Of a DNA stretch of 64,000 nucleotides, positions 3,653 to 29,405 are shown in pieces (position 1 is the first letter of the stretch; the number at the start of each line of letters is the position of its first letter). The stretch lies in NCBI GenBank assembly GCA_023251835.1, contig JAHEXZ010000015.1, forward strand, positions 25,568 to 89,567. The letters run 5' to 3'. Position numbers and translations under genes: made by a program. The notes beneath the pieces are model-generated. The model did not search any database. It saw nothing but the letters and a program-made list of their open reading frames with translations, and was not told the DNA's origin. This DNA is from Bacteroidota bacterium. GTDB lineage: Bacteria > Bacteroidota > Bacteroidia > 2-12-FULL-35-15.

Positions 3653-3729
3653 TTCGTCTGATATTAGAAAAAAGTAAATGGCAGACAAAGATTCGTAATT
3701 GGTTAAAATTCGTAATTCGTGGTATATAA

Positions 3730-12203: not shown

Positions 12204-12449
12204 CGATTCTGTTTTACGGTAAAAAACTCACTCGCAAATGTAAATAAAAATCGGTTACTGGATTACAAAACACCAGCTTCACAATACAGGCTTGCCGCTT
12301 GAGTTATGAATATATTAACATATTTCAACAAAAAGAAAAAAAGAAGCAAAAAAAGAAAAATGTACAACAACAAAAACAAACTTAACTTTAACTCTTTTCT
12401 GTCCTAAGGATTGGGTACATTATAGTCTAAAAAATTGATATTTCTCTAT

Positions 12450-14861
12450 TTAGTTACACTTTGTTTTGTTATACTCTTCCTTAACAAAAGGGTTATCAAA
12501 TACCTGGAAGGTTAAATAAGGTGAACCAAATAATTTACAATACCTTTCATGGTTTAATTTTTCTGCTTTTTGCAACGCTGTTACAAAGGTACGTGATTTG
12601 TAAAGTTCAGGCAGTTGGGCACAGTAGGATATATAGGCAAACAAGAGTTGCTCATTTGCTTCGTCTTTTCTGACAAAATCGTTTAACAGGCTGGCTGCAA
12701 ATTTATAATCTTTGAATCGTGCGAATACATAAGATAATTTGAGGTTATTCTGCCAGCTTGATTCTTTTAAATTGTAGAATGATTTCACCCTTTCAGTACA
12801 AGCCTGTATAATTGGTTCTGTACCTTCTTCTGTATTTTTTTCATCAATAACCTTAAACTGCCATTCAATATTTAAAGCATCTACCAGCTTTTTGGGGATA
12901 TCGCTTTTATAAAGTGCATCAATATGACTTTGCATTGCCGATATATCCTTAGAATCGCCAACGCTGGTATCTAATTTTACAGCACAATAAATGGTGTTAT
13001 AGGATGCATAACTATTTGCAGGATCAAGGGTAACAAGCTTTTTTAGCTGTTCGTAATCATTTTCATTGACAGTATTGTTTTTAGCCATAGACTTTAATAC
13101 TATCTGGTTATTCAGTAAACCTGAATATTTAGCTTCGCTTGGAATTTCAAGTTTGTCAAATGCTTCGGGAGTATATTTCTTTTCGCGTACCTGTTTGCCT
13201 ATATAATACTGTATTTTATAGGCCAGTTTAATATCTTTCTTTTTGGCAGCCTGGTTGAATTTACTTACAGAAAATTTTTCCTCTTTTGGTCCGCTGATGT
13301 CGTAAACAACATCCATAACAATTTCACCAAAACGTTGTTTGGATAAAAATGGCTCAAGCTCTTCAGAAAGCCCCGGTTTGGTATTTATTTCATGAATAGC
13401 CTGCTCCTTGCTCATTTTGGTTAGTGTATCATACTGAGTGCCTTCCATGGTCATTTTAAAAAGTTCCCACGAATCATTAGTTTTGATGGTTGTAACAACA
13501 TCCTGCTTTTGCAGCTTTCCGAGAGCCTTAATAATACTTTCTGAGCGTTTTTTTTGAAGTTTTACATTGGATTCAGCGTCACCTTCAATAGAAGAATATG
13601 CGGTGATGTATAATCCATTAATAATAAAATCAGGCTCCTGCAAAGCATTTAAAAAAGGCTCAATATCGGTTTCTTTGTAGTCATATTTGTTTTTTTCAAA
13701 CGGAAGGGTAAAATTCAATAAAGCATCCTCAGCTTTAGGTGAAAATAATGGTTTAAGATAGGCATTCGTATCCGGCATCAACAGCATTTTAAGTGTTGTA
13801 GTGGCATCCTGGTCGCCCTGCTCAATGTATGATTTTACAAGTGTTTTGCATAATTTGCCATTTTGTATAACAAGCAAATTCATTTCGTAAGTTGTATCTG
13901 TTTTAAGTCCTTTGGGGACAATTCCCAGCTGTATATCCAATTTATCAATTTTTGCTTTTTTGTCTGTCTTCTCCGGTTTAACACGATTTTTACTTAACAA
14001 CTTATCTTTTTTAACCGTTTTTGATAATACCCCTTTACTTAATAAGTTGTTGTCCATAATATTATAGTCAGGCTTTTCATATTGGGCACGCTGAATAATA
14101 TCTACAGCAAGGCCATCTGTTGGCTTTGCAATTAGTTTCATGAGTGTTTTCAGATTATCATACTTCAGGAATATTTTTCCATCTTCTACATATAATCCTC
14201 TTACAAGTCCATCGTAATCTTTGAATTTTTCACAATTTTTACAGGCTTTGTCGTCCGGAGCCTTTATCTTTTTGTTTTTCTTGGTATAGCGTACTTTCAG
14301 CTCTTTTCTCTTTTTCACTCCCGGGTTGAATGTATTGAAACTGCCGAACACCACAGAAATAAATGCTTTTTTGCCTGTTTCATCTAATTTTACACTTGGA
14401 CTTGCATATACATAGTTTCCATTTTTTATAATGTTTGGTTCTTTTTTACCCGTTTGCCATTTTGCAACAGCAGTAGCTGCAACTTCCTGGGGAGTCATAT
14501 TCTTTTTATCTTTAGTAATTGGCACAGTTAATACTATTTCTTCGGCATTTCTGGTTCCTCCAATAGAAATTACACGCTTTGCAGTAGTTTTGTATTTGCC
14601 TTTGCTGTTTTCTAAATTAGCTTTTCCCTGTTTTGCAATATATTCAGCCTGAATGGTACTTGCTTTTGCCAGCATGTCATTATATGCAAGTGAATCAATA
14701 CCATTTTCGATACGTACTCTGTTTAATTCATCCAATACAAGTTTGGCTGTGGTTTCAATGTCAAAATCGTTTTTTACTTCTTTATCTAAAGGAGAATTTT
14801 GTGCAGTAACATGAACAGCTATGAGGGTAATAAACAGAATAGAAATGATTCTTTTATACAT
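12450..14861 (-). CDS. Secreted 803-aa protein of unknown function, N-terminal CAP/SCP-like segment
   Basis: Signal peptide MYKRIISILFITLIAVHVTAQ. It is a long uninterrupted ORF. No catalytic motif was recognised. Confidence 0.7.
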   Translation of the reverse strand: MYKRIISILFITLIAVHVTAQNSPLDKEVKNDFDIETTAKLVLDELNRVRIENGIDSLAYNDMLAKASTIQAEYIAKQGKANLENSKGKYKTTAKRVISIGGTRNAEEIVLTVPITKDKKNMTPQEVAATAVAKWQTGKKEPNIIKNGNYVYASPSVKLDETGKKAFISVVFGSFNTFNPGVKKRKELKVRYTKKNKKIKAPDDKACKNCEKFKDYDGLVRGLYVEDGKIFLKYDNLKTLMKLIAKPTDGLAVDIIQRAQYEKPDYNIMDNNLLSKGVLSKTVKKDKLLSKNRVKPEKTDKKAKIDKLDIQLGIVPKGLKTDTTYEMNLLVIQNGKLCKTLVKSYIEQGDQDATTTLKMLLMPDTNAYLKPLFSPKAEDALLNFTLPFEKNKYDYKETDIEPFLNALQEPDFIINGLYITAYSSIEGDAESNVKLQKKRSESIIKALGKLQKQDVVTTIKTNDSWELFKMTMEGTQYDTLTKMSKEQAIHEINTKPGLSEELEPFLSKQRFGEIVMDVVYDISGPKEEKFSVSKFNQAAKKKDIKLAYKIQYYIGKQVREKKYTPEAFDKLEIPSEAKYSGLLNNQIVLKSMAKNNTVNENDYEQLKKLVTLDPANSYASYNTIYCAVKLDTSVGDSKDISAMQSHIDALYKSDIPKKLVDALNIEWQFKVIDEKNTEEGTEPIIQACTERVKSFYNLKESSWQNNLKLSYVFARFKDYKFAASLLNDFVRKDEANEQLLFAYISYCAQLPELYKSRTFVTALQKAEKLNHERYCKLFGSPYLTFQVFDNPFVKEEYNKTKCN

Positions 14862-15069
14862 TGTGTATTTTTGCTATGTAAGTGTGTATGGCAGCAAAAA
14901 TATTTTTTAGGTTCCAAACAGGAAAATATATTGTTAATCTTTTATGAACAAAAAGAATTTTTATTCACGAAATTTATATTGCTTGGGTGTAAGTTTTTGA
15001 AAATCAAGTAATTGATTTTTTTTGTTTTTCGAAAAAAACAATTGCTGCAGGAGGGATTTTTTAATTATT
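14837..15069. repeat. Direct repeat copy A (233 bp)
   Basis: 226/233 identical to 24131-24363 with no gaps by manual alignment. It covers the first 8 codons and the upstream region of the 803-aa gene. Confidence 0.9.
14895..14902 (-). promoter_or_regulatory. Bacteroidota-type -7 box TATTTTTG (TAnnTTTG) upstream of the 803-aa gene
   Basis: The minus strand reads TATTTTTG and ends 33 nt before the ATG at 14861. The upstream TTTG is closer than the usual spacing. Confidence 0.4.
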
Positions 15070-15286
15070 CCCCAAAACTCGCAAACCTTATCAGGGGATT
15101 ATTACCGGCAATGAGGATATGAACGAAAAAGAAGCGATTGAATTTTACAATCAGCGGGGAGATGCGGAGAACTCCAATCGTTATATGCTCAACGATTTTA
15201 ACTTACATCATCTGCCTTTTATGGATATGGATACCAATACCGTTTATATGTACTTTACGGCCATGTGCGCAACTTTGTTTGAGTAG
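15065..15286 (+). pseudogene. 3' fragment of a DDE transposase gene (IS1380/IS4-like C-terminus)
   Basis: Translates to ...GIITGNEDMNEKEAIEFYNQRGDAENSNRYMLNDFNLHHLPFMDMDTNTVYMYFTAMCATLFE*. This fits the YNQRG..E..f..lKndF....LPf......NtV pattern of transposase C-termini, recalled from memory. There is no N-terminal part, and it abuts repeat A. Confidence 0.55.
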
Positions 15287-15309
15287 ATGAAAAAGGTGTT
15301 GGTAAAATT

Positions 15310-16008
15310 TTATCTTGCATCAGCATACCATTTTGCCAACAAGTGAGGCGAAACACCTGTCAGGTATAATTTTTTTATCAGAATCCATTGCATCCTCGTT
15401 TTGAAGAATCCTGTCTCGATGTGCCTTCGAGCTGAAACAATTAGTTTTGGAAATTTTATCTGCTTTACTTTGAACTGTTTTTTCATTCTGATAGAAAAAT
15501 CATAATCCTCCATGATTGGAATTTCTTTGAAGCCGTCTAATATTTCAAAAACATCTTTCTTTACAAATATTCCATTGTCGCCATAAAAAATACATCTGTC
15601 GGATTGTTCACGATTCCTGAAAAACCTAAAATTCAAAATTATTCCAAGCTGTTTTATTTTTTTGTTGTGCGAGTCAAACTCATTGGCGAACCCGCCACCG
15701 TCAAACCCATCTTTCAATTGATTGCATATAGCGGTAAGCGCTCCATCGGGTACAAACATATCTGCATGAACAAAAAAAAGAATGCTGCCTTTTGCGTGCT
15801 TGGCTCCCTCGTTCAACTGTTTCGCTTTTCCTTTTTCGCAATGAATCACTTTAGCGTATTTGCCTGCTATTTCAATTGTGGTATCTGTACTTCCCCCGTC
15901 AGCAACAATGATTTCTTTTTGTGATTTACAGGAAAGTTTATTCAGTTGAAGAAGTGTATTCTCAATAGAAGACGATTCATTGTATGTGGGGATGATTATG
16001 GAAATCAT
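15310..16008 (-). CDS. Family 2 glycosyltransferase, paralogue of the rSAM/selenodomain-associated transferase 2
   Basis: Contains ISIIIPTYNE, VADGGSTDTT, FVHADM, YGDNGIFV, IMEDYDF and SARR. The motif order matches ORF 21686..22375. Confidence 0.75.
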   Translation of the reverse strand: MISIIIPTYNESSSIENTLLQLNKLSCKSQKEIIVADGGSTDTTIEIAGKYAKVIHCEKGKAKQLNEGAKHAKGSILFFVHADMFVPDGALTAICNQLKDGFDGGGFANEFDSHNKKIKQLGIILNFRFFRNREQSDRCIFYGDNGIFVKKDVFEILDGFKEIPIMEDYDFSIRMKKQFKVKQIKFPKLIVSARRHIETGFFKTRMQWILIKKLYLTGVSPHLLAKWYADAR

Positions 16009-17390
16009 TCTTTAGTGCGTAAAAATCGTGTGAATGCCTTTTTTACAATTTCGGAATAAGTGGGGTAAGCAAAAATTGTATCGGCAAAATTTTCAGCGGG
16101 AATTTTATTGTTAATCGCTACAGTTAAGATTTGTATCCATTCTCCCGCATGCGCTCCAATTGCATCAGCGCCAATGACAAGATTTTTAGAATTAAAAATT
16201 ACTTTTAAAAACCCGATTGTATTTCTATCGGTAATAAAACGATCAATGTTTGCGTCCACTTTGAAAACTGAAATTTCATTTCCAAATTTTTCTCGCGCTT
16301 CTTTTTCGGATAAACCTACATGTGCTATTTCAGGTTCAGTAAAAATTGCCCAAGGCAGTGCGCTTAAATCATTTTCTTTTTTATTCCCATTCAGGATATT
16401 TTCAATTACACTATTTGCCTGATAGGACGCGGTGTGAGTGAATTTAGGATAAGTTGCAACATCTCCACAGGCATAAATATGGGGAGTGGATGTCTGCAAA
16501 TAGGAATTTGTTTTGATTCCATTTTCTGAAAATTCCACACCCGATTTTTCCAAATCAAGATCGAAAACATTTGGATGCCTACCAGCAGCAAGAAAAATAC
16601 TTTTGGCAGAAATTTCTTTTTCTTTTCCGTCTTGAAAATATGAAACAAAAGTTGTTGCTATTTCTTTTCTAACACCTTTCAACTCGGCTGAACAAATAAT
16701 TTTAATTTCTTCTTTTTTAAAAATGTCAATGATGATTTTGGCTGCATCATCGTCAACTGGTTTTAAAATTCTCGGATTACGGTCAAGGATGGTAACCTTG
16801 CTTCCGAAACGAGCAAGCGCCTGTCCGAGTTCAGCAGAGATTACTCCCCCGCCAATGAAAATAATTGATTCAGGAAGTTCTCGTATTGACCAGAAATTTT
16901 CATTGTGAAGAAACTCAACTTCTTTTCCCACCGAGACATTTACTTTTTGCGGTGATGAACCAGTGCAAATTACAGCGTATTTAAAATTCAAAACTTCATC
17001 ACCGATGGCAATATTATTTTTATCTAAAAATTTTGCTCCGCTGCTGTTCACATACACATCTATTCCCTGTTTCTCAAAAATGATAGGCGTTTCGTGTTTG
17101 TAAACTTCCTGAACAATGCTGTCAACCTGCTCCATAACAGTTGCAAAATTCAGTTTGCCAGAAACCTGTATTCCACCTAATCCGTAATTTTCTTTCAGAT
17201 GTTTTGTCACCTTATATATTTTTGCACTATGCAGAAACGCTTTGCTCGGAATACAACCGTAATGTGTACACTCTCCGCCAATTTTATTTTTTTCAAGCAA
17301 GGCAACTTTCAATCCTTTTCGGTTGGCAGTAGTAGCCGCAACCAATCCACCCGAACCTGCGCCAATCACAACTAAATCATACTTTTTCAT
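16005..17390 (-). CDS. Class I pyridine nucleotide-disulfide oxidoreductase (MerA/Lpd family) with Tyr replacing the dyad His
   Basis: Contains VVIGAGSGG and the redox-active GGECTHYGCIPSK. A second Rossmann motif is IFIGGGVISAE. The C-terminus reads FAYPTYSE where Lpd/GR have HPTxSE. Confidence 0.8.
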   Translation of the reverse strand: MKKYDLVVIGAGSGGLVAATTANRKGLKVALLEKNKIGGECTHYGCIPSKAFLHSAKIYKVTKHLKENYGLGGIQVSGKLNFATVMEQVDSIVQEVYKHETPIIFEKQGIDVYVNSSGAKFLDKNNIAIGDEVLNFKYAVICTGSSPQKVNVSVGKEVEFLHNENFWSIRELPESIIFIGGGVISAELGQALARFGSKVTILDRNPRILKPVDDDAAKIIIDIFKKEEIKIICSAELKGVRKEIATTFVSYFQDGKEKEISAKSIFLAAGRHPNVFDLDLEKSGVEFSENGIKTNSYLQTSTPHIYACGDVATYPKFTHTASYQANSVIENILNGNKKENDLSALPWAIFTEPEIAHVGLSEKEAREKFGNEISVFKVDANIDRFITDRNTIGFLKVIFNSKNLVIGADAIGAHAGEWIQILTVAINNKIPAENFADTIFAYPTYSEIVKKAFTRFLRTKE

Positions 17391-17473
17391 TTTGGGAATA
17401 ATTAAATATTTTCAGCAGAATTGCTTAAACCATTACAGCGCTTCTTTTTCATTCTTATATCAAAATAACTATG

Positions 17474-17495
17474 TTTTTGTGGAATTAGCAAAAAT
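17474..17495. promoter_or_regulatory. Palindromic motif TTTTTGTGGAATTAGCAAAAAT, copy 1
   Basis: Lies 84-105 nt upstream of the reductase start at 17390. It matches 20500-20521 at 21 of 22 positions. Confidence 0.45.
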
Positions 17496-17515
17496 TTAGT
17501 TGCTTTGGCATACCA

Positions 17516-17899
17516 TCAATGTATGCCATATAATAAAAGTTTTTGTTTTACAAGATTTATGAGCTCAGTAGTGGAAGAACTGTAATTGATTTCATCTGCT
17601 GTAATGATTTGCAAAGTTTTTAAACCATTTTTCCAAAACACCGCAGGAAATTTTTTCCTCTTGATGTTATAAGCATTTTCAAATTCATCTCTGTGAAAGA
17701 ACAGCGATTGTATTTTGAATGAAGAAATGAACTCTTTCCATTCTTTCTTCTCAGTAAAATTTCCGTATGACAGTTTGCATAAATTACAGTCATAAGTTTT
17801 CGGAGAAAGTATTTTGTGGGTGAAGTCAACGAGCGAATTATAGAATCCTTCATCAGCATTATAGACGAATATTAAAGCGTGTTCGGTATCATTTTTCAT
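17516..17899 (-). CDS. Small CxxC protein, possible thioredoxin/glutaredoxin-like fold
   Basis: 127 aa with a CNLC motif and FPAVFW (a cis-Pro-like element). Its start overlaps the stop of the upstream small ORF by 4 nt. Confidence 0.45.
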   Translation of the reverse strand: MKNDTEHALIFVYNADEGFYNSLVDFTHKILSPKTYDCNLCKLSYGNFTEKKEWKEFISSFKIQSLFFHRDEFENAYNIKRKKFPAVFWKNGLKTLQIITADEINYSSSTTELINLVKQKLLLYGIH

Positions 17900-18105
17900 T
17901 TTAACCCTAATTGTTTTCGCAAAAGAGAATCGGCAACAGAATCTTTCTTCCTGTAATCAGCGATAACAGTTTCTGATTTCGTTCCTTTGCTTGTAAGTAC
18001 GTTGCTTTTTGGCCGAAACCATCCCCCCCGTGCCCATGATCCGCCAGCATTTGAATAAATTGTGACCAAACAAAACATTAGTGCATAAAATAATTTTTCT
18101 TTCAT
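17896..18105 (-). CDS. Small secreted or membrane-anchored hypothetical protein (69 aa)
   Basis: The N-terminus is hydrophobic (FYALMFCLVTIYSNA). It is tightly packed between the methyltransferase and CxxC genes. Confidence 0.4.
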   Translation of the reverse strand: MKEKLFYALMFCLVTIYSNAGGSWARGGWFRPKSNVLTSKGTKSETVIADYRKKDSVADSLLRKQLGLK

Positions 18106-18114
18106 TAAAAAAAG

Positions 18115-19086
18115 TTAACAACAACCACCGCCATCATAAAACCAAGTTGATTCAGAAATAAAAATATCCTTTCTTCCGAGTGATTTCAAGGCATTGGCTG
18201 TTTTATCGCAGACAGAAAGTGGCTGATTGAAATTCAGAATATGACGTTTATTATCATCATAAAATCCTTTCGTTCCGAAATAAATCGCTGTTTTTCCAGT
18301 GAACACACAGGGTCCGTCATCAGGCATCGGGTCTTTAACAGCGCACACTTCCACACTTTCAATAAAAATATTTTTTAGAGTATCATAATTTTCTGGGTCA
18401 AGAATTCTGTAAGGGCGTTTCGCTCTTACTTCAACAGTTCCGAAACCTACATCGGTAATCATTTTTATGTATTCCTTCAACGGCATCGCTCCGCTTAAAC
18501 ACATTGCTCTCAATACCTCGTCATTCTTGAGAGAATCAGAAATATTATCTTCACAAACAGGGTCGGATAAAACTAATCTGCCATTCGGTTTAAGCACACG
18601 ATACATTTCCTTCAATGCTTTTTTCAAATCTTCTTGTTTGAAAATATTGAATAAACAATTTTGAGCGGCAACATCTATACTTTCATTTTCAATGGGCAGA
18701 TTCAATGCATCCCCCTTTCTTACATCAATAAATTCCGATTTAAACCAATTGTTTTGCTTCATTGCATCAAGGAAGTTACTTTTACAAGCATGAAGCATTT
18801 CATCTACTACATCTATTCCAATCACTCCATTTTTCTTCCTGCTGAAATAGGAGAATTGCAAAAGTTCCATTCCTCCTCCAACTCCAACATAGAGTATGGT
18901 TGGTTCATTCACTAAATCTCGCGGATGGACCGTGCTTCCACAGCCGTAATTCATTTCCAACATTTTTTTTGGAATTTTCAATCCCGGTAATTGCCATACT
19001 GGTGTCGTGGTGCAGCACAATCCTACATTGGGCGTTTCAGCCGCTTCTTTATAAACATTTTTTGCTGTTTCAAGATAGGTTTCCAT
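18115..19086 (-). CDS. arsM: ArsM-like SAM-dependent (metalloid) methyltransferase
   Basis: The N-terminus has an LCC pair and YGCGST. The SAM motif is VGVGGGMEL. QNCLFNIF, VLKPNGRLVLSD and RAMCLSGAM parallel the conserved ArsM Cys-containing blocks. The protein ends in GGGCC. Confidence 0.65.
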   Translation of the reverse strand: METYLETAKNVYKEAAETPNVGLCCTTTPVWQLPGLKIPKKMLEMNYGCGSTVHPRDLVNEPTILYVGVGGGMELLQFSYFSRKKNGVIGIDVVDEMLHACKSNFLDAMKQNNWFKSEFIDVRKGDALNLPIENESIDVAAQNCLFNIFKQEDLKKALKEMYRVLKPNGRLVLSDPVCEDNISDSLKNDEVLRAMCLSGAMPLKEYIKMITDVGFGTVEVRAKRPYRILDPENYDTLKNIFIESVEVCAVKDPMPDDGPCVFTGKTAIYFGTKGFYDDNKRHILNFNQPLSVCDKTANALKSLGRKDIFISESTWFYDGGGCC

Positions 19087-19088
19087 AT

Positions 19089-20198
19089 TTAAAAATTAAT
19101 TTTAGTTAGAAGTAAATAAATTAATGCACTTATAATTGCTGCAACAGGAAGTGTGAGTAGCCACGAAAGAAAAATTTCTGAAATAACTTTTGTGTTTGCC
19201 TTTTTTGTTATTGTCCCGATTCCAAATAACGAACCCACCGAAACGTGTGTGGTAGAAACCGGAAGCCCATTTACACTTGCTGTTGAAACAAGAAGCGCAG
19301 TTACAAGATTTGCTGTGAATCCTTGTCCGTGATTCATGGTAGTAATTTTTTTACTCATTGTTTCTCCCACTTTTTTTGCATTGAGTAAACCGCCAATGAC
19401 AATAGCAACAGCAACGGCTCCTGCTCCGATATGCACGTCAAGTGCAGTGATTAGAAGCAAAAGTCCAACCATCTTCGGTGTATCATTCACCCCCCTTGCA
19501 AAACTTACTGCGCCTGCGCTGATGAAATGAAAAGCATCTAAAATTTTCTGCGCTGAAATTCCAACGATAGTTCCATTGTATTGCTCTACACATTGATTAA
19601 CAGTCCCTATTTTTATTGCTATTGAATTTTCTGCAATCGCAGTTTTATCTCCAAAAGCGTAAACTTTTTGTTCCTGCACCACACAAGCACAGGATTCTTT
19701 TGTGATGCCTGATTTTTTTCTTGCTGAAGCGAAAACAAAATACAAGAACATACTTGCGACAGCAGCAATGAGTGGACTTAAAATGAGAGGGAGAAAAAAT
19801 GTTCCTCCGAGTTTTCCGAAATTAAATTGTGAACCAACTGCAATCAATCCGGCTCCTGTAAGCGCGCCTACCAATCCATGTGTAGTGGAAATAGGCATTC
19901 CTATTCTTGTAGCGAGAAAGACGGTGACCGCTGCACCGAGAGCAACTGCAATGGCAAACGAGGGAGAAGCAATCAGTGAATCGGGAACTAACCCTTTTCC
20001 TGAAAAATTTTTTACGAGAGATGAAGCAAGAAAAATAGAAGCCACCGAGCCGAGCAAAGTGGTAATAGTTGCCCAATTGATCGCCTTTTTGTAATCTGTT
20101 GTCCCGCTGCCGAATAAAGTGGCAACTCCTTTGAAGTTATCGTTTGCACCGTTGGAATAAGCGAGAAAGATAACAGCTGTGAAAATTAAAAATGGCAT
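19089..20198 (-). CDS. Inorganic phosphate transporter, PiT/PHO4 family
   Basis: Contains NGANDNFKGVATLFG and a second repeat, RGVNDTPKMVG. The protein is polytopic. I prefer the internal ATG at 20198, because the 23 extra N-terminal codons of the track ORF read through the trx remnant. Confidence 0.85.
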   Translation of the reverse strand: MPFLIFTAVIFLAYSNGANDNFKGVATLFGSGTTDYKKAINWATITTLLGSVASIFLASSLVKNFSGKGLVPDSLIASPSFAIAVALGAAVTVFLATRIGMPISTTHGLVGALTGAGLIAVGSQFNFGKLGGTFFLPLILSPLIAAVASMFLYFVFASARKKSGITKESCACVVQEQKVYAFGDKTAIAENSIAIKIGTVNQCVEQYNGTIVGISAQKILDAFHFISAGAVSFARGVNDTPKMVGLLLLITALDVHIGAGAVAVAIVIGGLLNAKKVGETMSKKITTMNHGQGFTANLVTALLVSTASVNGLPVSTTHVSVGSLFGIGTITKKANTKVISEIFLSWLLTLPVAAIISALIYLLLTKINF

Positions 20199-20229
20199 CG
20201 CATTATTTTTTAAGCATAAATTTGTGTAT

Positions 20230-20435
20230 TCAATACTGGCTGGAAATTTCCGGGTTGCCATCCACATTCAATTTCCCGATAACCACTTTCCCTTCGCATT
20301 CCTTTGAAAGTTCATCTACAATGGGACCAACCATTTGGCAAGAACCACACCATTCTGCCTAGAAATCTACCTATACCGGTTTTCTGATTTCATTACCACT
20401 TCATTGAAGTTGGTATCTGTTAATTCTGTTGACAT
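20230..20435 (-). pseudogene. trxA: Thioredoxin pseudogene (frameshift, two in-frame TAG codons, 3' truncation)
   Basis: Reads MSTELTDTNFNEVVMKSE, then a 1-nt shift, then [48 protein letters not shown]. The WCGxC active site is recognisable, and the last ~35 aa of a normal Trx are missing. Confidence 0.8.
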
Positions 20436-20499
20436 AGTTTTAATTTTTTTGATCACTAATTTTTCTTTTACAATGCTAAATTATACGAAAGGAACTAAT

Positions 20500-20521
20500 T
20501 TTTTGTGGAATTAACAAAAAT
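20500..20521. promoter_or_regulatory. Palindromic motif TTTTTGTGGAATTAACAAAAAT, copy 2
   Basis: Has perfect TTTTTGT-N7-ACAAAAA symmetry. It lies 65-86 nt upstream of the trx remnant start. Confidence 0.45.
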
Positions 20522-20584
20522 ATTTTGATAACTAATGGCGAGTTCTTATTTTTGAGATAAAAAAATGGGATAATTGTATTATCA

Positions 20585-20830
20585 AACAGCCGGAGAAATA
20601 TTTTCTAACCAGGCAAGAGACACTTGCAATCATCCTTGCTCATCGTCAGCAGAAGGATAAGAGTATAGCAGATAGACTAAAACAATCTTATTTTTAATAA
20701 GGGATTTAGTTATGTAGAAGTATCGGAGTTATTATTATTGGACGAGAATACCATACGTAACACATACGAAATTTTTGTTCGTGAAGGAAAAATTTTTCAA
20801 AACCTAAGTTGGTTTGGTATAGTTTACTGC
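20585..20830 (+). pseudogene. Degenerate helix-turn-helix remnant (IS630-like transposase N-terminus?)
   Basis: Two broken frames read ETLAIILAHRQQKDKSIADRLKQS and KGFSYVEVSELLLLDENTIRNTYEIFVREG. No intact ORF remains. Confidence 0.3.
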
Positions 20831-20872
20831 ACAATGAAAGAGTGTCAGATGAATGACATAGAGTTACATTTC

Positions 20873-21676
20873 CTAAATCGCATCCGCAAAAATCTTTGAT
20901 AATTTTTTATCAGCTTTTCCTGCAACTTCGATTATTTCCTCAATGCTTATGGGTTTTAGATTATCGGGGTCGCACTCATCTGTTATAACTGACACTGCCG
21001 CACATTGCAGTCCCAAATGGTTTGCAGCAATCACTTCGGGCACAGTGCTCATTCCTACCATATCTACCCCTATATTTTTCAGCATCCGATATTCAGCAGG
21101 GGTTTCCAACATGGGGCCCGCCACAGCTGCATAGACACCTTTTTTCAAAATCACTTTTTCAGATAAACCACATTTTTTCAATTGCTGTTGAAGTTCCAAT
21201 GAATAGGGCTGACTCATGTCGGGGAATCCCGGACCGAATGAATCTTCGTTTTTTCCGATAAGAGGATTCCCTGGAAGAAGATTGATATGGTCGTCAATCA
21301 AAACCAAATCTCCCTTTTTAAAATCTAAATTGATTCCACCTGCCGCGTTGGAAAGAAAAAGATTTTTCACGCCAAGCATTTTCATAACACGAATGGGAAA
21401 AACGATTTGCTGAAAAGAATATCCTTCGTAGAAATGAAATCTTCCCTGCATCGATATCACTTTCTTTTTTCCTATCTCACCATAAATTAAATTCCCCTTA
21501 TGAAATTCCACAGTTGAAACTGGGAAGTGGGGGATTTCAGAATAAGGAATAGTTGAAATAATTTTTAAATGAGTGATGAATTGGTTAAGCCCTGTGCCGA
21601 GAACAATTCCATAATCAGCATTCCCCATCCCCTTGCCTCTGAGAAAATTTTCTGTTTCTTTGATTTTTTCGTACAT
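20873..21676 (-). CDS. Purine nucleoside phosphorylase, PunA/MTAP (trimeric PNP) fold
   Basis: Contains GIVLGTGL, GRFHFYEGY, SNAAGGIN, VAGPMLETPAEYRML and GMSTVPEV. 267 aa. Confidence 0.85.
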   Translation of the reverse strand: MYEKIKETENFLRGKGMGNADYGIVLGTGLNQFITHLKIISTIPYSEIPHFPVSTVEFHKGNLIYGEIGKKKVISMQGRFHFYEGYSFQQIVFPIRVMKMLGVKNLFLSNAAGGINLDFKKGDLVLIDDHINLLPGNPLIGKNEDSFGPGFPDMSQPYSLELQQQLKKCGLSEKVILKKGVYAAVAGPMLETPAEYRMLKNIGVDMVGMSTVPEVIAANHLGLQCAAVSVITDECDPDNLKPISIEEIIEVAGKADKKLSKIFADAI

Positions 21677-21685
21677 ACAATTCTC

Positions 21686-22375
21686 TTATTGAATGTGATT
21701 CTGATAATACCTTACAATTTCCTCCTGTGAAAAACCGAGATAGTAAAGAATATTTATCACTGTATAATTCCATTGCAGGCGGAGCATCCCGTTCTTACGG
21801 TATCTTCTTGCTGATGTAACAACATAATCCGGTATAACGGAAAATTTTCCCTGTTTTGTAATTCTTCTCACAATATCATTATCTTCCATTATTTCCAGAT
21901 TAATGTCGAAGCCGTTTATTTTTCCAAACAAATCACGCTTCGCAAATAATGACTGGTCTCCGAAGCGACATAGATTATTATTGAACCTTGTGAACCAACT
22001 GAAAAATCTGAAGAAAGGATGTTTGCTGTCAAATTTCATTCTGAAACAACCGGCATCATTACCGTCTTTTATGGATTGAAGAATCCGCTCATCAAATTTT
22101 TTGGGTGGAATAGTATCCGCATGAAGAAAATAAAAAATGTCTCCCGTAGCAAGATTTGCTCCTGTATTCATTTGAAGTGCCCTGCCTCTTCGCTCTGTTA
22201 GAAAAACTTTTGCACCAGCCCGTTTCGCAATTTCAGCGGTGTTATCTCCGCTACAAGCATCCACAACAATAATTTCCTGAATATTTCTCTCGGAAGAATT
22301 ATTTTTCAAGGTATGAACAAGTTTTTCAATTCTCTCAGATTCGTGGCAAGTCGGTATGATAATGCTGATTTTCAT
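21686..22375 (-). CDS. Family 2 glycosyltransferase, TIGR04283-like (transferase 2, rSAM/selenodomain-associated)
   Basis: Contains ISIIIPTCHE, GRALQMNTGA, FLHADT, FGDQSLF, IMEDNDI and SARRYRKNG. Confidence 0.75.
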   Translation of the reverse strand: MKISIIIPTCHESERIEKLVHTLKNNSSERNIQEIIVVDACSGDNTAEIAKRAGAKVFLTERRGRALQMNTGANLATGDIFYFLHADTIPPKKFDERILQSIKDGNDAGCFRMKFDSKHPFFRFFSWFTRFNNNLCRFGDQSLFAKRDLFGKINGFDINLEIMEDNDIVRRITKQGKFSVIPDYVVTSARRYRKNGMLRLQWNYTVINILYYLGFSQEEIVRYYQNHIQ

Positions 22376-22989
22376 TTTTTTATTTGAATTTTTCCTAATT
22401 CACCGATGTTATCTTCTGTATCAATATCAGATAATGCAGGGAGCAAGTGATATTTCAGTTGTAATTTTTTAAGAATGTTAATACTGTCAAGCAAAACATT
22501 TTCCGTGCTCCAGGGAATATTTTCAAATAATTCTTTGTGGAGCGATTTCATTCCAAGAAGATAATATCCTCCGTCTATCGCTGGACCAATTACCACATCA
22601 TTATTATCGAGTGTTTCAAATGCTTTTTGAAGCATTTCTGTTTTCAATTCATGGCAATCTGTACCTATTATGAGAACCTTTTCATATTTATTTTGAAATT
22701 CAAAAGCAAAAGCATTTTTCATTCGCTCTCCTAAATCGCTTCCGTCTTGTACATATTTTTGATAAAAATCCTTGTCCCACATATCATTTTTGTCAATAAA
22801 ATCAGAATAGAAAATTGCTTTGTCGCAATTTTTTAATTGTGCGACAATATTTCCGGTATAGTGAAGAAGCATCTTATAAATTTGAAGTGCCTTCTCGTTT
22901 CCAATGCTTTTTGCAAGACGGGTTTTAACTTTCCCTTTGACAGGGTTTTTCATAAAAACCATAAGCAAGTATTTGTTTTTTTCTTTCAT
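22372..22989 (-). CDS. DUF2064 / TIGR04282-like (transferase 1, rSAM/selenodomain-associated; CofC/MobA-like nucleotidyltransferase fold)
   Basis: Contains VFMKNPVKGKVKTRLA, QDGSDLGERM, IIGTDCHEL, GPAIDGGYYLLGM, IPWSTENV and LSDIDTEDN. Confidence 0.75.
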   Translation of the reverse strand: MKEKNKYLLMVFMKNPVKGKVKTRLAKSIGNEKALQIYKMLLHYTGNIVAQLKNCDKAIFYSDFIDKNDMWDKDFYQKYVQDGSDLGERMKNAFAFEFQNKYEKVLIIGTDCHELKTEMLQKAFETLDNNDVVIGPAIDGGYYLLGMKSLHKELFENIPWSTENVLLDSINILKKLQLKYHLLPALSDIDTEDNIGELGKIQIKK

Positions 22990-22992
22990 CTT

Positions 22993-24039
22993 TTATTTTG
23001 TAATTGCTCCCTGACAACTTGAACCTGCCCCGGCAGTACATCCGAAACAATGCTGATTAACGATAATATTTCTTTCAGAAAGATTTTTGGTATTGAATTC
23101 GCTGATATGCTGAGGCGCATTTTTCTGAACTTTTAGTTCAAGCATCTGGTTAAAATCACAGTCGTATAAATATCCATCCCAACTGACTGAAATCGTATTT
23201 CTGCACATCACGCCTTGTGCGGCTGTTGCATTAAAAGCATTCACAAGCGTCTCCATATATTTTTCGTATTTCCCGAGCATGAGCAAGTAATCTAAAAACC
23301 TGCTGATAGGAAGATTGTTTATTGTATAAAGGTTATTAAAAGCGATTCCAAATTTTTCTCCAAGTTCATGTTTATAATCTGAGTGAAGTTTTTCCTGCGA
23401 ACCGGCTAACGAAGCTCCGATAGGATTAAAAACAAGATGTAACTCCAATCCTGTTTCTTCTTTTCCATAGCCAATTTTATTCAACATTTTTAACGATTCA
23501 ATCGAATGATTAAAAACTCCTTCTCCTCTTTGCTTATCTGTATTTTCTTTTGTGTAACATGGAAGAGAAGAAATCACAATTACTTTATGCTTTTTAAAAA
23601 ATTCAGGATACATTTTGAATTTTTTATTTGAAACAAGAATTGTGAGATTGCTTCGCACTATAATTTTTTTCCCGAGTTTGAAAATTTCCTCAACAAACCA
23701 TTGAAATCTTGGATTCATTTCAGGTGCGCCACCAGTTAAATCAATAGTATTCACCGAAGATTTCTTAATCGCTTCTAAACACAACTGCATTGTTTCGCGT
23801 GTCATAATTTCTTTTCGGTCAGGTCCTGCATCCACATGGCAATGCGCGCAGGTTTGATTGCACATTTTTCCAAGATTGATTTGCAGAATATCAAGAGAAA
23901 TTGGTTTTAAAGGATAAAGACCGATGTCTTTCAATTTTTCCGAAAAGGCAGGGACTAAAGCTTTGCTATCCTCAAGAATTGAAATTTGGTTCTCTGCAAC
24001 TGAGATTTTGTTGCCGCTTGATTTTAATGACTTTAACAT
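22993..24039 (-). CDS. arsS: Radical SAM/Cys-rich-domain protein, ArsS-like (TIGR04167 family)
   Basis: Contains CNQTCAHCHVDAGP (CxxxCxxC) and a C-terminal HCFGCTAGAGSSCQG Cys cluster. The track ORF starts at a TTG (24066), but the first ATG is at 24039. Confidence 0.75.
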   Translation of the reverse strand: MLKSLKSSGNKISVAENQISILEDSKALVPAFSEKLKDIGLYPLKPISLDILQINLGKMCNQTCAHCHVDAGPDRKEIMTRETMQLCLEAIKKSSVNTIDLTGGAPEMNPRFQWFVEEIFKLGKKIIVRSNLTILVSNKKFKMYPEFFKKHKVIVISSLPCYTKENTDKQRGEGVFNHSIESLKMLNKIGYGKEETGLELHLVFNPIGASLAGSQEKLHSDYKHELGEKFGIAFNNLYTINNLPISRFLDYLLMLGKYEKYMETLVNAFNATAAQGVMCRNTISVSWDGYLYDCDFNQMLELKVQKNAPQHISEFNTKNLSERNIIVNQHCFGCTAGAGSSCQGAITK

Positions 24040-24130
24040 AGTGTTGTTTTTATTTTCATAGTACAAAGTAATCTATTAGCAATGTATAGAAATGTCATTT
24101 TACGCGACAAACAAACTTTCGGATAGTTGT

Positions 24131-24363
24131 GAATAGAAATAATTCTTTTATACATTGTGTATTTTTGCTATGTAAGTGTGTGTGGCAGCAAAAATATTTT
24201 TTAGGTTCCAAACAGGAAAATATATTGTTGATCTTTTATGAACAAAAAGAATTTTTATTCACGAAATTTATATTATTTGGGTGTAAGTTTTTGAAAATCA
24301 ATTAATTGATTTTTTTTGTTTTTCGAAGAAAACAATTGCTGCAGGAGGGATTTTTTAATTATT
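24131..24363. repeat. Direct repeat copy B (233 bp)
   Basis: 226/233 identical to 14837-15069. It carries a duplicate ATG plus 8 codons and a duplicate -7 box, now lying upstream of arsS. Confidence 0.9.
24189..24196 (-). promoter_or_regulatory. Duplicated -7 box TATTTTTG, positioned to drive the arsS-side operon
   Basis: Same motif as 14895-14902, within repeat B. Confidence 0.35.
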
Positions 24364-24371
24364 ACAGTTTA

Positions 24372-25016
24372 TTAGTTCATAATACAACGTACAGAGAGGC
24401 CACTTCCCATGCTGCCATCGTCTCTTCCTATATCACTAAAACTGGAATGTAAAGTTCTTCCCCAGGCTTTATTTTTATTTTTTGATTCCGTAGCAGTCCA
24501 AAAGCATGCATTATTTCCTGCATACAGAAAAGAACCTACACTGTAACGGTAACCGCCCGGTAAGCCGGAAAAGCCGGTTTCATTGGTTGCATTTCCATTG
24601 TGTTTCCAGCCTCTTTTGGCTTTAATTTTCGCCCCGGCTTCTTCTCCACCAAGGTTATTAATCAGTTGATCCCATTCTTCGTCTGTAGCGATGTGAAATC
24701 CCTTGGGTGCTAACCCACGAGGGTCATTGACAGCATACCAGTTGTATAGCTTTCCATATTTGGCACCGTTTTCTTCGTCATTATCATAGTAACACCAGGC
24801 TCCTGTTTTCATTTTTGACCATAATGTAGGATTTTTTACCTGGGGAATGGTATCTCCGTTGCGGTAAGTACAAACGTCTAAATTTTCAGCCATCCATACT
24901 TGTTCTTTAATTTTTATTATTTTAAAAATATGTTTATCCTGGTCAGTGCCTTTTTCATTTGAAGTAAATAGTACTAGTGCGAGTAACGCAGTGATACTAA
25001 TAATACCTTTTCTCAT
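24372..25016 (-). CDS. FISUMP-domain (Fibrobacter succinogenes major paralogous domain, TIGR02145-like) lipoprotein
   Basis: Contains WMAENLDV, YGKLYNWYAV, LAPKGFHIATDEEW, TGFSGLPGGYR and FWTATE. Confidence 0.75.
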   Translation of the reverse strand: MRKGIISITALLALVLFTSNEKGTDQDKHIFKIIKIKEQVWMAENLDVCTYRNGDTIPQVKNPTLWSKMKTGAWCYYDNDEENGAKYGKLYNWYAVNDPRGLAPKGFHIATDEEWDQLINNLGGEEAGAKIKAKRGWKHNGNATNETGFSGLPGGYRYSVGSFLYAGNNACFWTATESKNKNKAWGRTLHSSFSDIGRDDGSMGSGLSVRCIMN

Positions 25017-25464
25017 TGGGATTACAAATTATTTAATTTTTTATTTCAGTAATAAAAAGTGATACCCCTGAAATAACCCACTATTCCAGTATAGATAAGT
25101 GCAAAAATGAGCTATTTTTTATAGTTAGCGTACTATTTTTTAGAGATGTTATAAACAACCGAAAGTTAATAGTGGAGGTTATTAGAGGTGGTATATATAA
25201 TTTTATTATATATCTCCGTAGGCTGTTGAGCGAATTTCAGATTCCGTCCGCTCTTTGGCAATTACCTTATTGAATGCATCTGTGTCCGGTTCGAATAAAA
25301 CTCACGATAGTATTATAAATTATGCCTGTTAGCTCGTAGAGATAACAACTCAAACGAGGAATATAATACTCAGCTTTTATAGTAAAGTCAACGGGTATGA
25401 AGTTTGAAAAACCGGTGAAATAATATATACCTATTTTCTAAAACATTTAAAATTCAACTCAATT

Positions 25465-26022
25465 ATGAAAACAGCAAGTAAAACAACAGGAAAAGTAAAA
25501 AGCACATCAGAAGAACCCGGTATGGAAGAATCAAAATTGATGAAGCTATTCGAAGATGAACTAAAAGATATTTATTGGGCTGAGAAAGCGTTGGCAAAGG
25601 CATTTCCAAAATTTGTCAAAAATGCAACTTCGGATGAATTAGCAGATACCATTGAAAATCACCTCAATGAAACAGAAACGCATGTGCAAAAAGTGGAGCA
25701 GGTATTTGAGACGTTAGATAAGAAGGCGGTAGCTAAAAAATGTGAAGCTATGGTAGGATTGCTAAAAGAGGCTGAAGATATTATTAAAAGCTGTGATAAA
25801 GGAGCAATGTGTGATGCGGGAATTATCTCTGCAGTACAAAAGATAGAACATTATGAAATTGCTACTTATGGTACTCTTAGAACGTTTGCCCAGGAATTAA
25901 ATTTAACGGAAGCTGCTACTTTACTGGAAGAAATTCTAAATGAAGAAAAAAATGTTGATGAAAAACTAACTCAAATAGCTAAATCAACCATTAATGTTCA
26001 GGCGTTGGAAGAAGTAGAATAA
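25465..26022 (+). CDS. Ferritin-like DUF892 (YciE/YciF family) protein
   Basis: Contains LKDIYWAEKALAKAFPKFV...HLNETETHVQKVEQVFE and EHYEIATYGTL. Confidence 0.7.
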   Translation: MKTASKTTGKVKSTSEEPGMEESKLMKLFEDELKDIYWAEKALAKAFPKFVKNATSDELADTIENHLNETETHVQKVEQVFETLDKKAVAKKCEAMVGLLKEAEDIIKSCDKGAMCDAGIISAVQKIEHYEIATYGTLRTFAQELNLTEAATLLEEILNEEKNVDEKLTQIAKSTINVQALEEVE

Positions 26023-26029
26023 TTTATAA

Positions 26030-26055
26030 CTCGTCCCGATAGCTATCGGGACGAG
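26030..26055. terminator. Bidirectional hairpin (26-nt perfect palindrome) between convergent genes
   Basis: The sequence ctcgtcccgatagctatcgggacgag lies between the stops at 26022 (+) and 26060 (-). Confidence 0.6.
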
Positions 26056-26059
26056 TTGA

Positions 26060-26701
26060 TTATTTCTTTCTTACGATCACTAAACCATCCCTCACAGGTA
26101 ACAACATATGTTCTATACGATGATCAGAATGGATCTTTTTGTTAAAGGCATCTATTGCTTTGGCATCAGCATCCATTTTTTCAGGAACATTTAACACTTT
26201 ACCACTCCATAGCACATTATCTGCGATGATGTAACCGCCTTTACGTACTTTATCAAATACCAGGTCATAATATGCAGAATAGTTTTTTTTATCGGCATCA
26301 ATAAAAACCAGATCAAATGTTATTTCTATAGTTGGAATAATGGTAAGAGCATTACCTATATAATAATTGATATTATTAGTTAATCCGGCCTCGTTAAAAA
26401 AGGTACGTACCTTATCTTCCAACTCCTCATTTATATCGATGGTGTAAAGTTTACCATTTTCTTTTAATCCATGAGCAAGGCAAATAGCGGAATACCCTGT
26501 GAATGTTCCTATTTCCAGTATTTGTTCCGGTTGAATCATAGTGCTTAGCATGCTCAATAAATTACCCTGCATGTGTCCGGAAAGCATACGAGGCATCAAT
26601 ACATTGGCATATGTATCCCTGTTAATTTTTTTTAAAATAGCTGATTCCGGTTGTGAATGTGCCAATGCATACGTTTCGATTTGTTCATCTATAAATTCCA
26701 T
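26060..26701 (-). CDS. Class I SAM-dependent O-methyltransferase (family 3, caffeoyl-CoA OMT-like)
   Basis: Contains ILEIGTFTGYSA, IDADKKNY and ADNVLWSG. Confidence 0.75.
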   Translation of the reverse strand: MEFIDEQIETYALAHSQPESAILKKINRDTYANVLMPRMLSGHMQGNLLSMLSTMIQPEQILEIGTFTGYSAICLAHGLKENGKLYTIDINEELEDKVRTFFNEAGLTNNINYYIGNALTIIPTIEITFDLVFIDADKKNYSAYYDLVFDKVRKGGYIIADNVLWSGKVLNVPEKMDADAKAIDAFNKKIHSDHRIEHMLLPVRDGLVIVRKK

Positions 26702-26861
26702 TTTATTGTTTTTTATTGATACGAAAGTACATATTTATATAATTGTTAATAAAATCATAATGAACGAATCTATCTGTAATATATCCAATAATTTCACGAT
26801 ATTTACATTCCCAAATTCAAAAAAGAGCAATTTCTCTAAACTTAATATTGATACATAAATA

Positions 26862-28538: not shown

Positions 28539-28559
28539 AAGAAAGCTATAATGAAAAGG

Positions 28560-28598
28560 AAACCCGGATGGTTTGTTAGCCATCCGGGTTTCTTTTTT
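28560..28598 (+). terminator. Rho-independent terminator of ettA
   Basis: A 12-bp stem aaacccggatgg/ccatccgggttt with an 8-nt loop, followed by cttttttat. Confidence 0.8.
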
Positions 28599-28626
28599 AT
28601 CTTGTTTTAATCAATCTGACAATTAT

Positions 28627-29118
28627 TCAAGGTTTACTCTTTTTCCTCGTAGCTATAAAAATAATCAAGGCAATAACCAGCACTATTGGTGTGATTATAT
28701 ACCATAATGATATGGGGGTAATAGGATGTATGTAGCTAAATTCTTCGGTGTATATTGTTATTGCCTTCTCGGCAGTAGAAAATCGTTTCTTTATATTACA
28801 CTCGCCATTGACAAAGGATAGCATAGTGTCTTCGCCATTAATAATAAAATTGATTTTATTGTTATTAAATAAAAGCCGTGTATGCTCCGGATTTTTGAAT
28901 TTTAATTTAATATCCGTATCTGTGAAGGTAAAAATAACGGAGGGAACGGTAACTTCAATATCTTTGCTGTTTATCCGGGCAATGATAACCGAATTATCGG
29001 TATTGTCATTATTTTCAATTGTACTATGCTCTAATCCAGCGTATGCATTTATATATAGTAGATTTAATACTGAATATAAAATTAAAAGGTGTGCTTTTCT
29101 CATTAGTAAATATTTCAT
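28627..29118 (-). CDS. Hypothetical protein with signal sequence and C-terminal TM anchor
   Basis: 163 aa. The N-terminal leader is hydrophobic, and the C-terminal helix reads LWYIITPIVLVIALIIFIA. No motif was recognised. Confidence 0.45.
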   Translation of the reverse strand: MKYLLMRKAHLLILYSVLNLLYINAYAGLEHSTIENNDNTDNSVIIARINSKDIEVTVPSVIFTFTDTDIKLKFKNPEHTRLLFNNNKINFIINGEDTMLSFVNGECNIKKRFSTAEKAITIYTEEFSYIHPITPISLWYIITPIVLVIALIIFIATRKKSKP

Positions 29119-29405
29119 AAAACAAATATAACTGTTTTTGAGATGTCTGGGGGCTTTCTTACAAAGAAAGAAAATTAATTGAACAGCCTCTATAAGTGTT
29201 CATATTATTTACAGTTTAAATTTCTGTAAATAGAAACGCCTGTTTTCCAAACATGAATTGAAAACAGGCATTTTATTATTAATTATTAGAGAATACGTTT
29301 TAGCTATAGATAAGCTTATAGTCGAGCCATATTAAGGGGTATGGTTTATATTTTTTAAGATAAATATTACGGTGCGATGCACCTTAAAAAAAACTTACTC
29401 ACTAA

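Follow-up and report, generated by a model that had tools for sequence, protein, structure and literature searches.

A predicted arsenosugar biosynthesis cluster between two copies of a neighboring gene's 5′ region in a genome of the Bacteroidia

The repeat pair and the genes between its copies

In the 64,000-nt window analyzed here (contig JAHEXZ010000015.1 of assembly GCA_023251835.1, from an uncultured lineage of the Bacteroidia), the 5′ region of one gene is present twice, and the 9 kb of DNA between the two copies are, as judged from profile matches, a degraded cluster for arsenosugar biosynthesis. The repeated sequence stems from a gene for an 803-aa secreted protein with a weak CAP domain (12450-14861, minus strand). 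Copy A (14837-15069, minus strand) is contiguous with this gene and contains its predicted promoter, 5′ untranslated region (5′ UTR) and first eight codons. Copy B (24131-24363, minus strand) is the same 233 nt with seven substitutions. It begins 8 nt past the stop codon of a FISUMP (Fib_succ_major) gene (24372-25016, minus strand), and ends 91 nt upstream of the ATG of arsS, the first gene of the cluster. The copies form a direct repeat that aligns without gaps and is identical at 226 of 233 positions (97%), so that realignment bore out the length, identity and number of substitutions given in the first-pass annotation of this DNA. Six transitions and one transversion separate the copies (at 14847, 14888, 14936, 14981, 14982, 15008, and 15034 in copy A), and the longest exact run common to them is 47 nt. 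Both edges are sharp, with homology between the copies ending there. The only other direct repeat of at least 40 nt in the window is a 41-nt pair. Each copy consists of the ATG and seven further codons (MYKRIISI) together with 208 nt upstream, also as first annotated, and the duplicated extent corresponds to positions −208 to +24 of the 803-aa gene. The single coding difference, ATC/ATT, is synonymous.

Comparison with related genomes indicates that the repeated sequence is native to the 803-aa gene, of which it forms the promoter, the 5′ UTR and the start of the signal-peptide sequence. Upstream regions were aligned for the orthologues at four loci (L035, L036, L042, and L043; 78-79% amino acid identity). 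In all orthologues aligned, the last ~95 nt before the ATG hold the invariant blocks TTTTTGTTCATAA, ATATATTT and CTAAAAAATATTTTTG. The third block includes TATTTTTG, which fits TAnnTTTG, the −7 promoter consensus of Bacteroidetes. The core of the repeat is 73-83% conserved in 10 relatives, with one match per locus and always upstream of an orthologue of the 803-aa gene, while the distal ~115 nt are not conserved among relatives. All seven substitutions between the copies lie outside the conserved promoter blocks, an outcome that has a probability of ~0.3 by chance and is not significant, and the seven sites fall in unalignable or gapped columns of the outgroup alignment. The distal part of the repeat (24290-24375, minus strand, and its equivalent in copy A) can fold into two A/U-rich hairpins (−9 kcal/mol, z = −2.8). 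Located directly after the FISUMP stop codon, they may act as a weak terminator of the FISUMP gene; if so, the terminator was also duplicated ahead of the promoter of the 803-aa gene.

That the unit might be a common dispersed repeat had been named at first pass among the observations that would speak against its interpretation, and it is not the case. Only two copies are present in the window, the core matches only orthologous sites upstream of homologues of the 803-aa gene in 64 fetched loci, an exact scan for a 34-nt core gave no match in JGI metagenome contigs, and a scan of the repeat against Rfam gave none. A dispersed repeat or miniature inverted-repeat transposable element was thus rejected.

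The genes between the copies were identified by NCBIfam profiles with curated cutoffs, and five of their products exceed the cutoffs of arsenosugar families. Reading from copy B, the first is the radical SAM enzyme ArsS (22993-24039, minus strand; TIGR04167, 451.5 bits, cutoff 300), whose start at 24039 agrees with the 348-aa gene calls and whose role in arsenosugar biosynthesis is taken from previous work (10.1101/2024.02.01.577332). It is followed on the same strand by two arsenosugar glycosyltransferases, one of TIGR04282 (DUF2064; 22372-22989; 220.2 bits, cutoff 134) and one of TIGR04283 (21686-22375; 241.8 bits, cutoff 182), and by a purine nucleoside phosphorylase (PNP, 20873-21676). A thioredoxin (trx) pseudogene (20223-20441, minus strand) precedes a PiT/PHO4-family transporter of phosphate, or probably arsenate (19089-20198, minus strand), and the arsenosugar-type arsenite methyltransferase ArsM (18115-19086, minus strand; NF038099, 559.2 bits, cutoff 400). 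Next are a 69-aa open reading frame (ORF; 17896-18105), a 127-aa conserved cluster protein (17516-17899) with 76% identity to a 126-aa protein of a related cluster, a FAD-dependent pyridine-nucleotide disulfide oxidoreductase (16005-17390), and a second TIGR04283-family arsenosugar glycosyltransferase (15310-16008; 196.5 bits, cutoff 182), all on the minus strand. The first-pass annotation had rightly placed all intact genes between the copies on the minus strand and had recognized bracketed, inserted accessory genes, but it overlooked both their arsenosugar identity and the promoter nature of the repeat.

The closest related clusters (L039, L040, and L041) have ArsM proteins with 83-86% amino acid identity to that of the window. 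Their canonical layout starts with a divergent glutaredoxin gene (not in L040) and a Crp/Fnr-type regulator gene, and continues with the genes for ArsS, GT1, GT2 (not in L040), PNP, Trx, PiT and ArsM, after which locus-specific genes follow; in L039 these encode proteins of 278, 118, 174, 147, 303, and 126 aa and a CMD/peroxidase-like protein. The window has the same order of ArsS, DUF2064 glycosyltransferase, GT2, PNP, Trx, PiT, and ArsM, at 75-86% amino acid identity. In contrast to the L039-41 clusters, it is without the divergent Crp/Fnr regulator and glutaredoxin, its trx is dead, and five genes are lost; none of these (regulator, glutaredoxin, intact trx, five further cluster genes) was found in the 64 kb. 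The decay of trx noted at first pass is real: compared with its counterpart in L039, the gene has two stop codons in frame and one frameshift and is missing 85 nt at the 3′ end. The 69-aa ORF matches residues 242-303 of the 303-aa protein of L039 and is its 3′ remnant. Because only the last 62 residues of that protein remain, the stretch from ArsM to the 126/127-aa gene must have lost about five of the genes present in L039. On the other hand, the window gained the FAD oxidoreductase, the second glycosyltransferase, the foreign promoter copy upstream, and ~390 bp of extra DNA between PNP and trx (20442-20832) that canonical clusters do not have. The last segment had been called a second IS-like remnant, a view that did not hold, as Pfam gives only sub-threshold helix-turn-helix matches (E = 0.04-0.07).

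The 41-nt pair mentioned above (17455-17495 and 20481-20521, 83% identical) reads ATTTTTGYTAATTCCACAAAAA..TAGTT..TTT..TATAA on the minus strand. One copy lies upstream of the FAD oxidoreductase gene, and the other, inside the ~390-bp extra DNA, lies upstream of the trx pseudogene and PiT. The motif may be a common internal promoter or operator of the ars cluster, and is presented as a candidate only. Two observations concern the surroundings of the related clusters. In L041, a gene of the RteC family (3267-4046), a regulator of conjugative transposons, is two genes from the arsenosugar cluster, which hints that such a cluster can ride on Bacteroidota conjugative elements. In L040 (288-5986), the cluster is 1.4 kb from xanthine dehydrogenase (XDH)-like and FAD-binding genes, whose homologues in the window (836-4662; 74 and 63% amino acid identity) are only 10 kb from the island. 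No ars genes were found within 10 kb of 20 further XDH loci, and the closest of these, L054 and L056, have the gene order of the window: XDH, FAD-binding, (HisKA), and PFOR. An ancient ars-XDH linkage was therefore dropped as a general explanation (0/20), and the proximity in L040 is either a coincidence or a lineage-specific event.

Both edges of the island carry traces of its history. At the copy B side, the native upstream region of arsS is retained (24040-24130, minus strand), with a TTGTC-N9-GACA palindrome and a TACTTTG box. The palindrome (24085-24112 in the window; ~3150-3175 in L039) occurs upstream of arsS in all four clusters. It probably binds the Crp/Fnr-type regulator that is encoded divergently in L039-41 and is missing from the window. 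The native sequence is cut 17 nt beyond the palindrome. Since nucleotide homology to the native region extends to 24113, the joint with copy B lies inside the former divergent intergenic regulatory region. At the copy A side there is an internal relic of a transposase gene of the IS1380 type (DDE_Tnp_1_4), with both ends missing (15070-15309, plus strand). The first ~16 nt have no assignable origin. The relic matches positions 319-370 of the 435 in the Pfam model, is interrupted by a TGG-to-TAG nonsense change at 15287-15289, and continues for ~7 further residues, with homology to ~15306. It had been described as a transposase 3′ fragment abutting repeat A; its left edge is indeed at the boundary of repeat A, but it is an internal piece and not a 3′ fragment. 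An intact IS1380 insertion sequence was rejected on the same grounds, only positions 319-370 being matched. All 14 homologues of the relic recovered (P0252-P0265) are short fragments of 80-124 aa, mostly on short contigs, and the search for a full-length IS1380-type copy recovered short fragments only.

Assembly support and the empty site

The window is carried by a 64,874-bp ENA contig (ERZ27297570), and a second assembly of the sample is available as Logan k = 31 contigs of run SRR14366766. Four Logan contigs map to the locus at 99.96-100% identity (12368-14877, 15228-17999, 18050-24171, and 24334-29254). Of the contig ends that face the repeats, three overshoot a base specific to one copy (14847, 24141) or the repeat edge (24364) by exactly 30 nt, as is expected of a de Bruijn graph where a sequence truly occurs twice. 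This supports three of the four junctions, namely those between the 803-aa gene and repeat A, between the island and repeat B, and between repeat B and the FISUMP gene; one Logan contig (L034) spans 24130/24131 with the copy B base at 24141. In addition, a 95,541-bp NCBI contig is recorded as the longest one for each of five proteins from across the locus (FISUMP, ArsS, ArsM, the second glycosyltransferase, and the 803-aa protein). It may nevertheless be asked whether the contig is an artefact or strain chimera, in which an island-free strain and an island from elsewhere were fused via a short common sequence. The source is a metagenome contig, the fourth junction (15069/15070) has no coverage among the retrieved Logan contigs, and the break at 15228 and the uncovered 18000-18049 mean some heterogeneity of the sample. 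Against this, the three junctions lie within unique Logan contigs that bear copy-specific bases, the exact runs shared by the copies do not exceed 47 nt, so that assemblers with k > 47 can separate them, and the five proteins agree on one NCBI contig. An artefact is therefore hardly to be expected. The contig end at 15228, which falls within the IS relic, and the 50 nt missing from the Logan contigs at 18000-18049 indicate strain-level polymorphism or other IS copies in SRR14366766.

Related lineages illustrate what the site looks like when the cluster is absent. In L036-38, L042, and L043/44, whose 803-aa proteins each have 79% amino acid identity to that of the window, a FISUMP gene, a short variable spacer and the 803-aa gene are co-oriented and there are no ars genes. 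FISUMP is 89% identical at the amino acid level in L036-38, and the FISUMP proteins of L042 and L043 belong to the 90%-identity cluster of the window. The three lineages share the order OMT ... DUF892 ... BrkB, FISUMP, spacer, and 803-aa gene, all co-oriented, and the flanks are the same in the window, with OMT at 26060, DUF892 at 25465, and FISUMP at 24372. Because related lineages have no ars genes between FISUMP and the 803-aa gene, the cluster was inserted into a variable spacer here, and the empty site proposed at first pass (FISUMP, one repeat, 803-aa gene) fits the gene order in these three lineages. In the searched collections, nothing closer than 79% (803-aa protein) or 86% (ArsM) amino acid identity was found except the sample itself, so the empty site is supported by gene order and not at the nucleotide level. 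Taken together, these results lead us to conclude, with a probability of about 85%, that a degraded arsenosugar cluster was inserted between the FISUMP gene and the 803-aa gene, with duplication of the 5′ region of the latter.

The genes in the spacer differ among the lineages: a 160-aa ORF in L036 (9151-9633), a 162-aa ORF and a 443-aa protein of the type IX secretion system in L042 (7792-9645), and a 65-aa ORF in L043 (2366-2563). From this comparison the spacer would be a local hotspot of gene gain and loss, independent of the ars insertion. Larger rearrangements also took place around the locus. In more distant GTDB relatives (L001, L002, L003, L005, and L017), the 803-aa gene is convergent with and adjacent to a homologue of the window gene at 28627-29118, and next to it is a homologue of 29633-32269 (Clp/AAA ATPase domains), whereas in the window the 803-aa gene and 28627-29118 are co-oriented and 14 kb apart. 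This difference in orientation and distance implies inversion or translocation of roughly 12.4-28.6 kb in one lineage.

Origin of the duplication

The block between the repeats is not a recognizable self-mobile element, nor does it represent a new kind of mobile element. NCBIfam or Pfam scans of the ORFs between the repeats, which covered all those of at least 120 aa as well as the 69-aa ORF and the 55-aa relic of the transposase, identified no recombinase. The 64 kb contain no tRNA or tmRNA, and no terminal inverted repeats were found at the ends of the block. Insertion of a transposon or IS was rejected, since a 233-nt duplication stands against target-site duplications of 2-14 bp and the ends are without inverted repeats; the earlier judgment that a transposase would not duplicate so long a target site was thus correct.

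A related possibility is that an integrase placed the island. The repeats would then be attL and attR, the element would have supplied a replacement 5′ end, and the recombinase gene would since have been lost. Direct repeats do flank the block, the target gene is intact, and the related cluster in L041 adjoins the RteC-type regulator. However, neither an integrase, excisionase, mob or tra gene nor space for one exists between the repeats, there is no tRNA, no copy of the 5′ region of the 803-aa gene is found at the clusters L039-41, and the interior is an operon of chromosomal type cut within its own regulatory region. We consider integrase action very improbable. Islands that target tRNA genes resemble the locus in having flanking direct repeats and a reconstituted target gene, but here there are no recombinase and no tRNA, the repeat is the 5′ and not the 3′ end of a gene, and 233 nt is much longer than a typical att core.

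From this one genome, the explanation that we favor, with about even confidence, is homologous recombination, of Campbell type or anchored by homology at one end. The 5′ region of the resident 803-aa gene would have recombined with another copy, ~3% diverged from it, that was already joined to the cluster and the IS relic, and this could have happened by two routes. In the first, a single crossover with a circular DNA molecule would have integrated the cluster. In the second, the cluster with an IS would have landed at codon 8 and cut the 803-aa gene from its promoter, and DNA of a sister strain would then have repaired the gene, entering through homologous crossover within the coding sequence at one end and illegitimate joining within the IS at the other. 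Three considerations favor recombination. First, a divergence of 3% is easily explained if the copies came from different strains; for comparison, Logan contigs differ from the window by only ~0.02-0.04%. Second, identical repeats of 233 nt would hardly persist long enough to accumulate 3% divergence. Third, the end of the IS relic coincides with the edge of repeat A, which is expected of an illegitimate joint. The copies share identical runs of 35-47 nt, enough for RecA, and integration with one homologous and one illegitimate end has been documented (PMC3240628).

Each route has a known counterpart. Campbell-type insertion-duplication is the single-crossover integration of circular DNA carrying a chromosomal fragment, for example a suicide plasmid. 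It leaves the shared fragment as a direct repeat on either side of the insert and the target gene intact on one side, and RecA can reverse the insertion; likewise, the repeats here match the extent of a single segment of the uninterrupted target, of which relatives have one copy. The locus differs in that the island is without vector, rep and mob functions, no circular form was seen, the copies are 3% diverged, and the shared fragment is a promoter with eight codons, so that both flanks would gain a working promoter. The Campbell-type mechanism put forward at first pass is no more than compatible with the data, and nothing in the block marks a circular or self-mobile element. The second route resembles homology-facilitated illegitimate recombination (PMC3240628), with a homologous end in the 803-aa gene or repeat and an illegitimate joint in the IS relic, and would explain the diverged copy A. 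It differs in that such recombination usually replaces or deletes recipient DNA, while here it must follow an earlier insertion at codon 8, and in that no transformation system is documented for this uncultured lineage. In complex class 1 integrons, the 3′ conserved segment is duplicated around ISCR1, which is explained by recombination of a circular intermediate. There, too, accessory genes beside a transposase gene are bracketed by a partial duplication of host sequence, but the relic here is of the IS1380/DDE type and not an HUH rolling-circle transposase, and there is no integron context.

Several points weigh against insertion of the cluster by recombination. The junction 15069/15070 is seen only in the ENA contig, and a lookup of the 55-aa transposase ORF to recover a contig over it gave nothing on record. 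No integrase, rep or mob gene was found among the scanned ORFs, so that plasmid and integrative functions are absent from them. The composition of the island equals that of the flanks: its tetranucleotide correlation with the rest of the window (0.963) is the mean of all 9-kb windows, and its GC content is 0.363 versus 0.376. Nothing marks a recent foreign origin, and the comparison of 15070-24130 with the flanks suggested at first pass thus gave no foreign signal. No donor, circular form or sister strain was found in the searched collections, which makes the crossover untraceable. The Campbell route requires a donor with two illegitimate joints ready-made, and the two-step route several events, while in-situ duplication needs fewer. 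The IS relic, truncated on both sides, requires extra deletions under any model. Finally, copy B as a promoter, dependence of the native ars promoter on an activator, and coupling of an upstream ORF to arsS, all considered in the last section, are predictions from sequence features.

The main rival is duplication-insertion in situ, in which the cluster entered at breaks offset by 233 nt or was copied by template switching during replication. The copies would have been identical at first and would have acquired the 3% divergence later, while selection for ars prevented RecA-mediated loss. This needs only the two novel joints that are observed, and the repeat edges are sharp. The trx pseudogene, the internal deletion and the nonsense change in the IS relic give the interior an aged appearance, its composition is fully host-like, and the substitutions are mostly transitions. 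Nevertheless, the divergence between the copies is ~100-fold that between the two assemblies of the sample, initially identical direct repeats of 233 nt must have escaped deletion and gene conversion for very long, and there is no microhomology at the joints. To our knowledge, no established bacterial mechanism yields a 233-nt target duplication, which also counts against this model. We therefore think it rather unlikely. The same divergence problem is faced by a model of tandem duplication followed by replacement, in which a segment from −208 including the 803-aa gene was duplicated and the upstream copy was replaced from codon 9 by the cluster and IS. Tandem duplications arise often and can be set off by DNA that is partly repeated, IS copies among others (PMC3784515). 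A redundant gene copy tolerates disruption, and the IS relic is at the inner joint. This model, however, takes at least three events whose endpoints must leave a clean 233-nt repeat, and no remnant of a second body of the 803-aa gene lies between the repeats; it is quite improbable. Recombination with a diverged copy remains our preferred origin.

Predicted consequences for expression

The duplication is predicted to affect expression on both sides, as both copies keep the conserved promoter blocks. Copy A likely drives the 803-aa gene. Copy B likely adds a complete, regulator-independent promoter upstream of arsS. The ars operon also retains its own predicted core promoter and palindromic operator, without an adjacent gene for the Crp/Fnr-type regulator. 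The palindrome precedes the −7-like box by ~35-40 nt, as is typical of activator-dependent promoters. If the native promoter does depend on an activator, the captured promoter may keep the operon expressed. Translation may be influenced as well. From the duplicated ATG runs a chimeric 40-codon upstream ORF (24033-24155, minus strand), whose TAA overlaps the ATG of arsS (ATGTTAA), and this arrangement would likely allow translational coupling. The two copies are also a likely substrate for RecA-dependent loss of the island.

These predictions could be combined into a bolder proposal, in which the duplication is no passive scar but a rewiring of regulation under selection. According to this proposal, the ars operon, having lost its Crp/Fnr-type activator gene, would have captured a conserved housekeeping promoter with its start codon, the chimeric leader would couple arsS translation, and the repeats would make the island an integrase-free, RecA-excisable cassette that is gained and lost in the population. 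We regard this as doubtful. The locus is a fresh example of known phenomena, insertion-duplication and an arsenosugar cluster, and a fairly ordinary scar; current understanding is not overturned by it.

Even so, it provides a natural example of an accessory metabolic operon that settled without a dedicated recombinase and was given a promoter, as predicted here, by the duplicated 5′ end of its neighbor. A reduced arsenosugar cluster without the usual regulator in uncultured Bacteroidia bears on which organisms make organoarsenicals in the environment and how their production is controlled. Promoters of Bacteroidota differ from those of the sigma-70 type, and if promoter capture is true, the locus would be a simple test of how horizontally moved operons gain expression in Bacteroidota.

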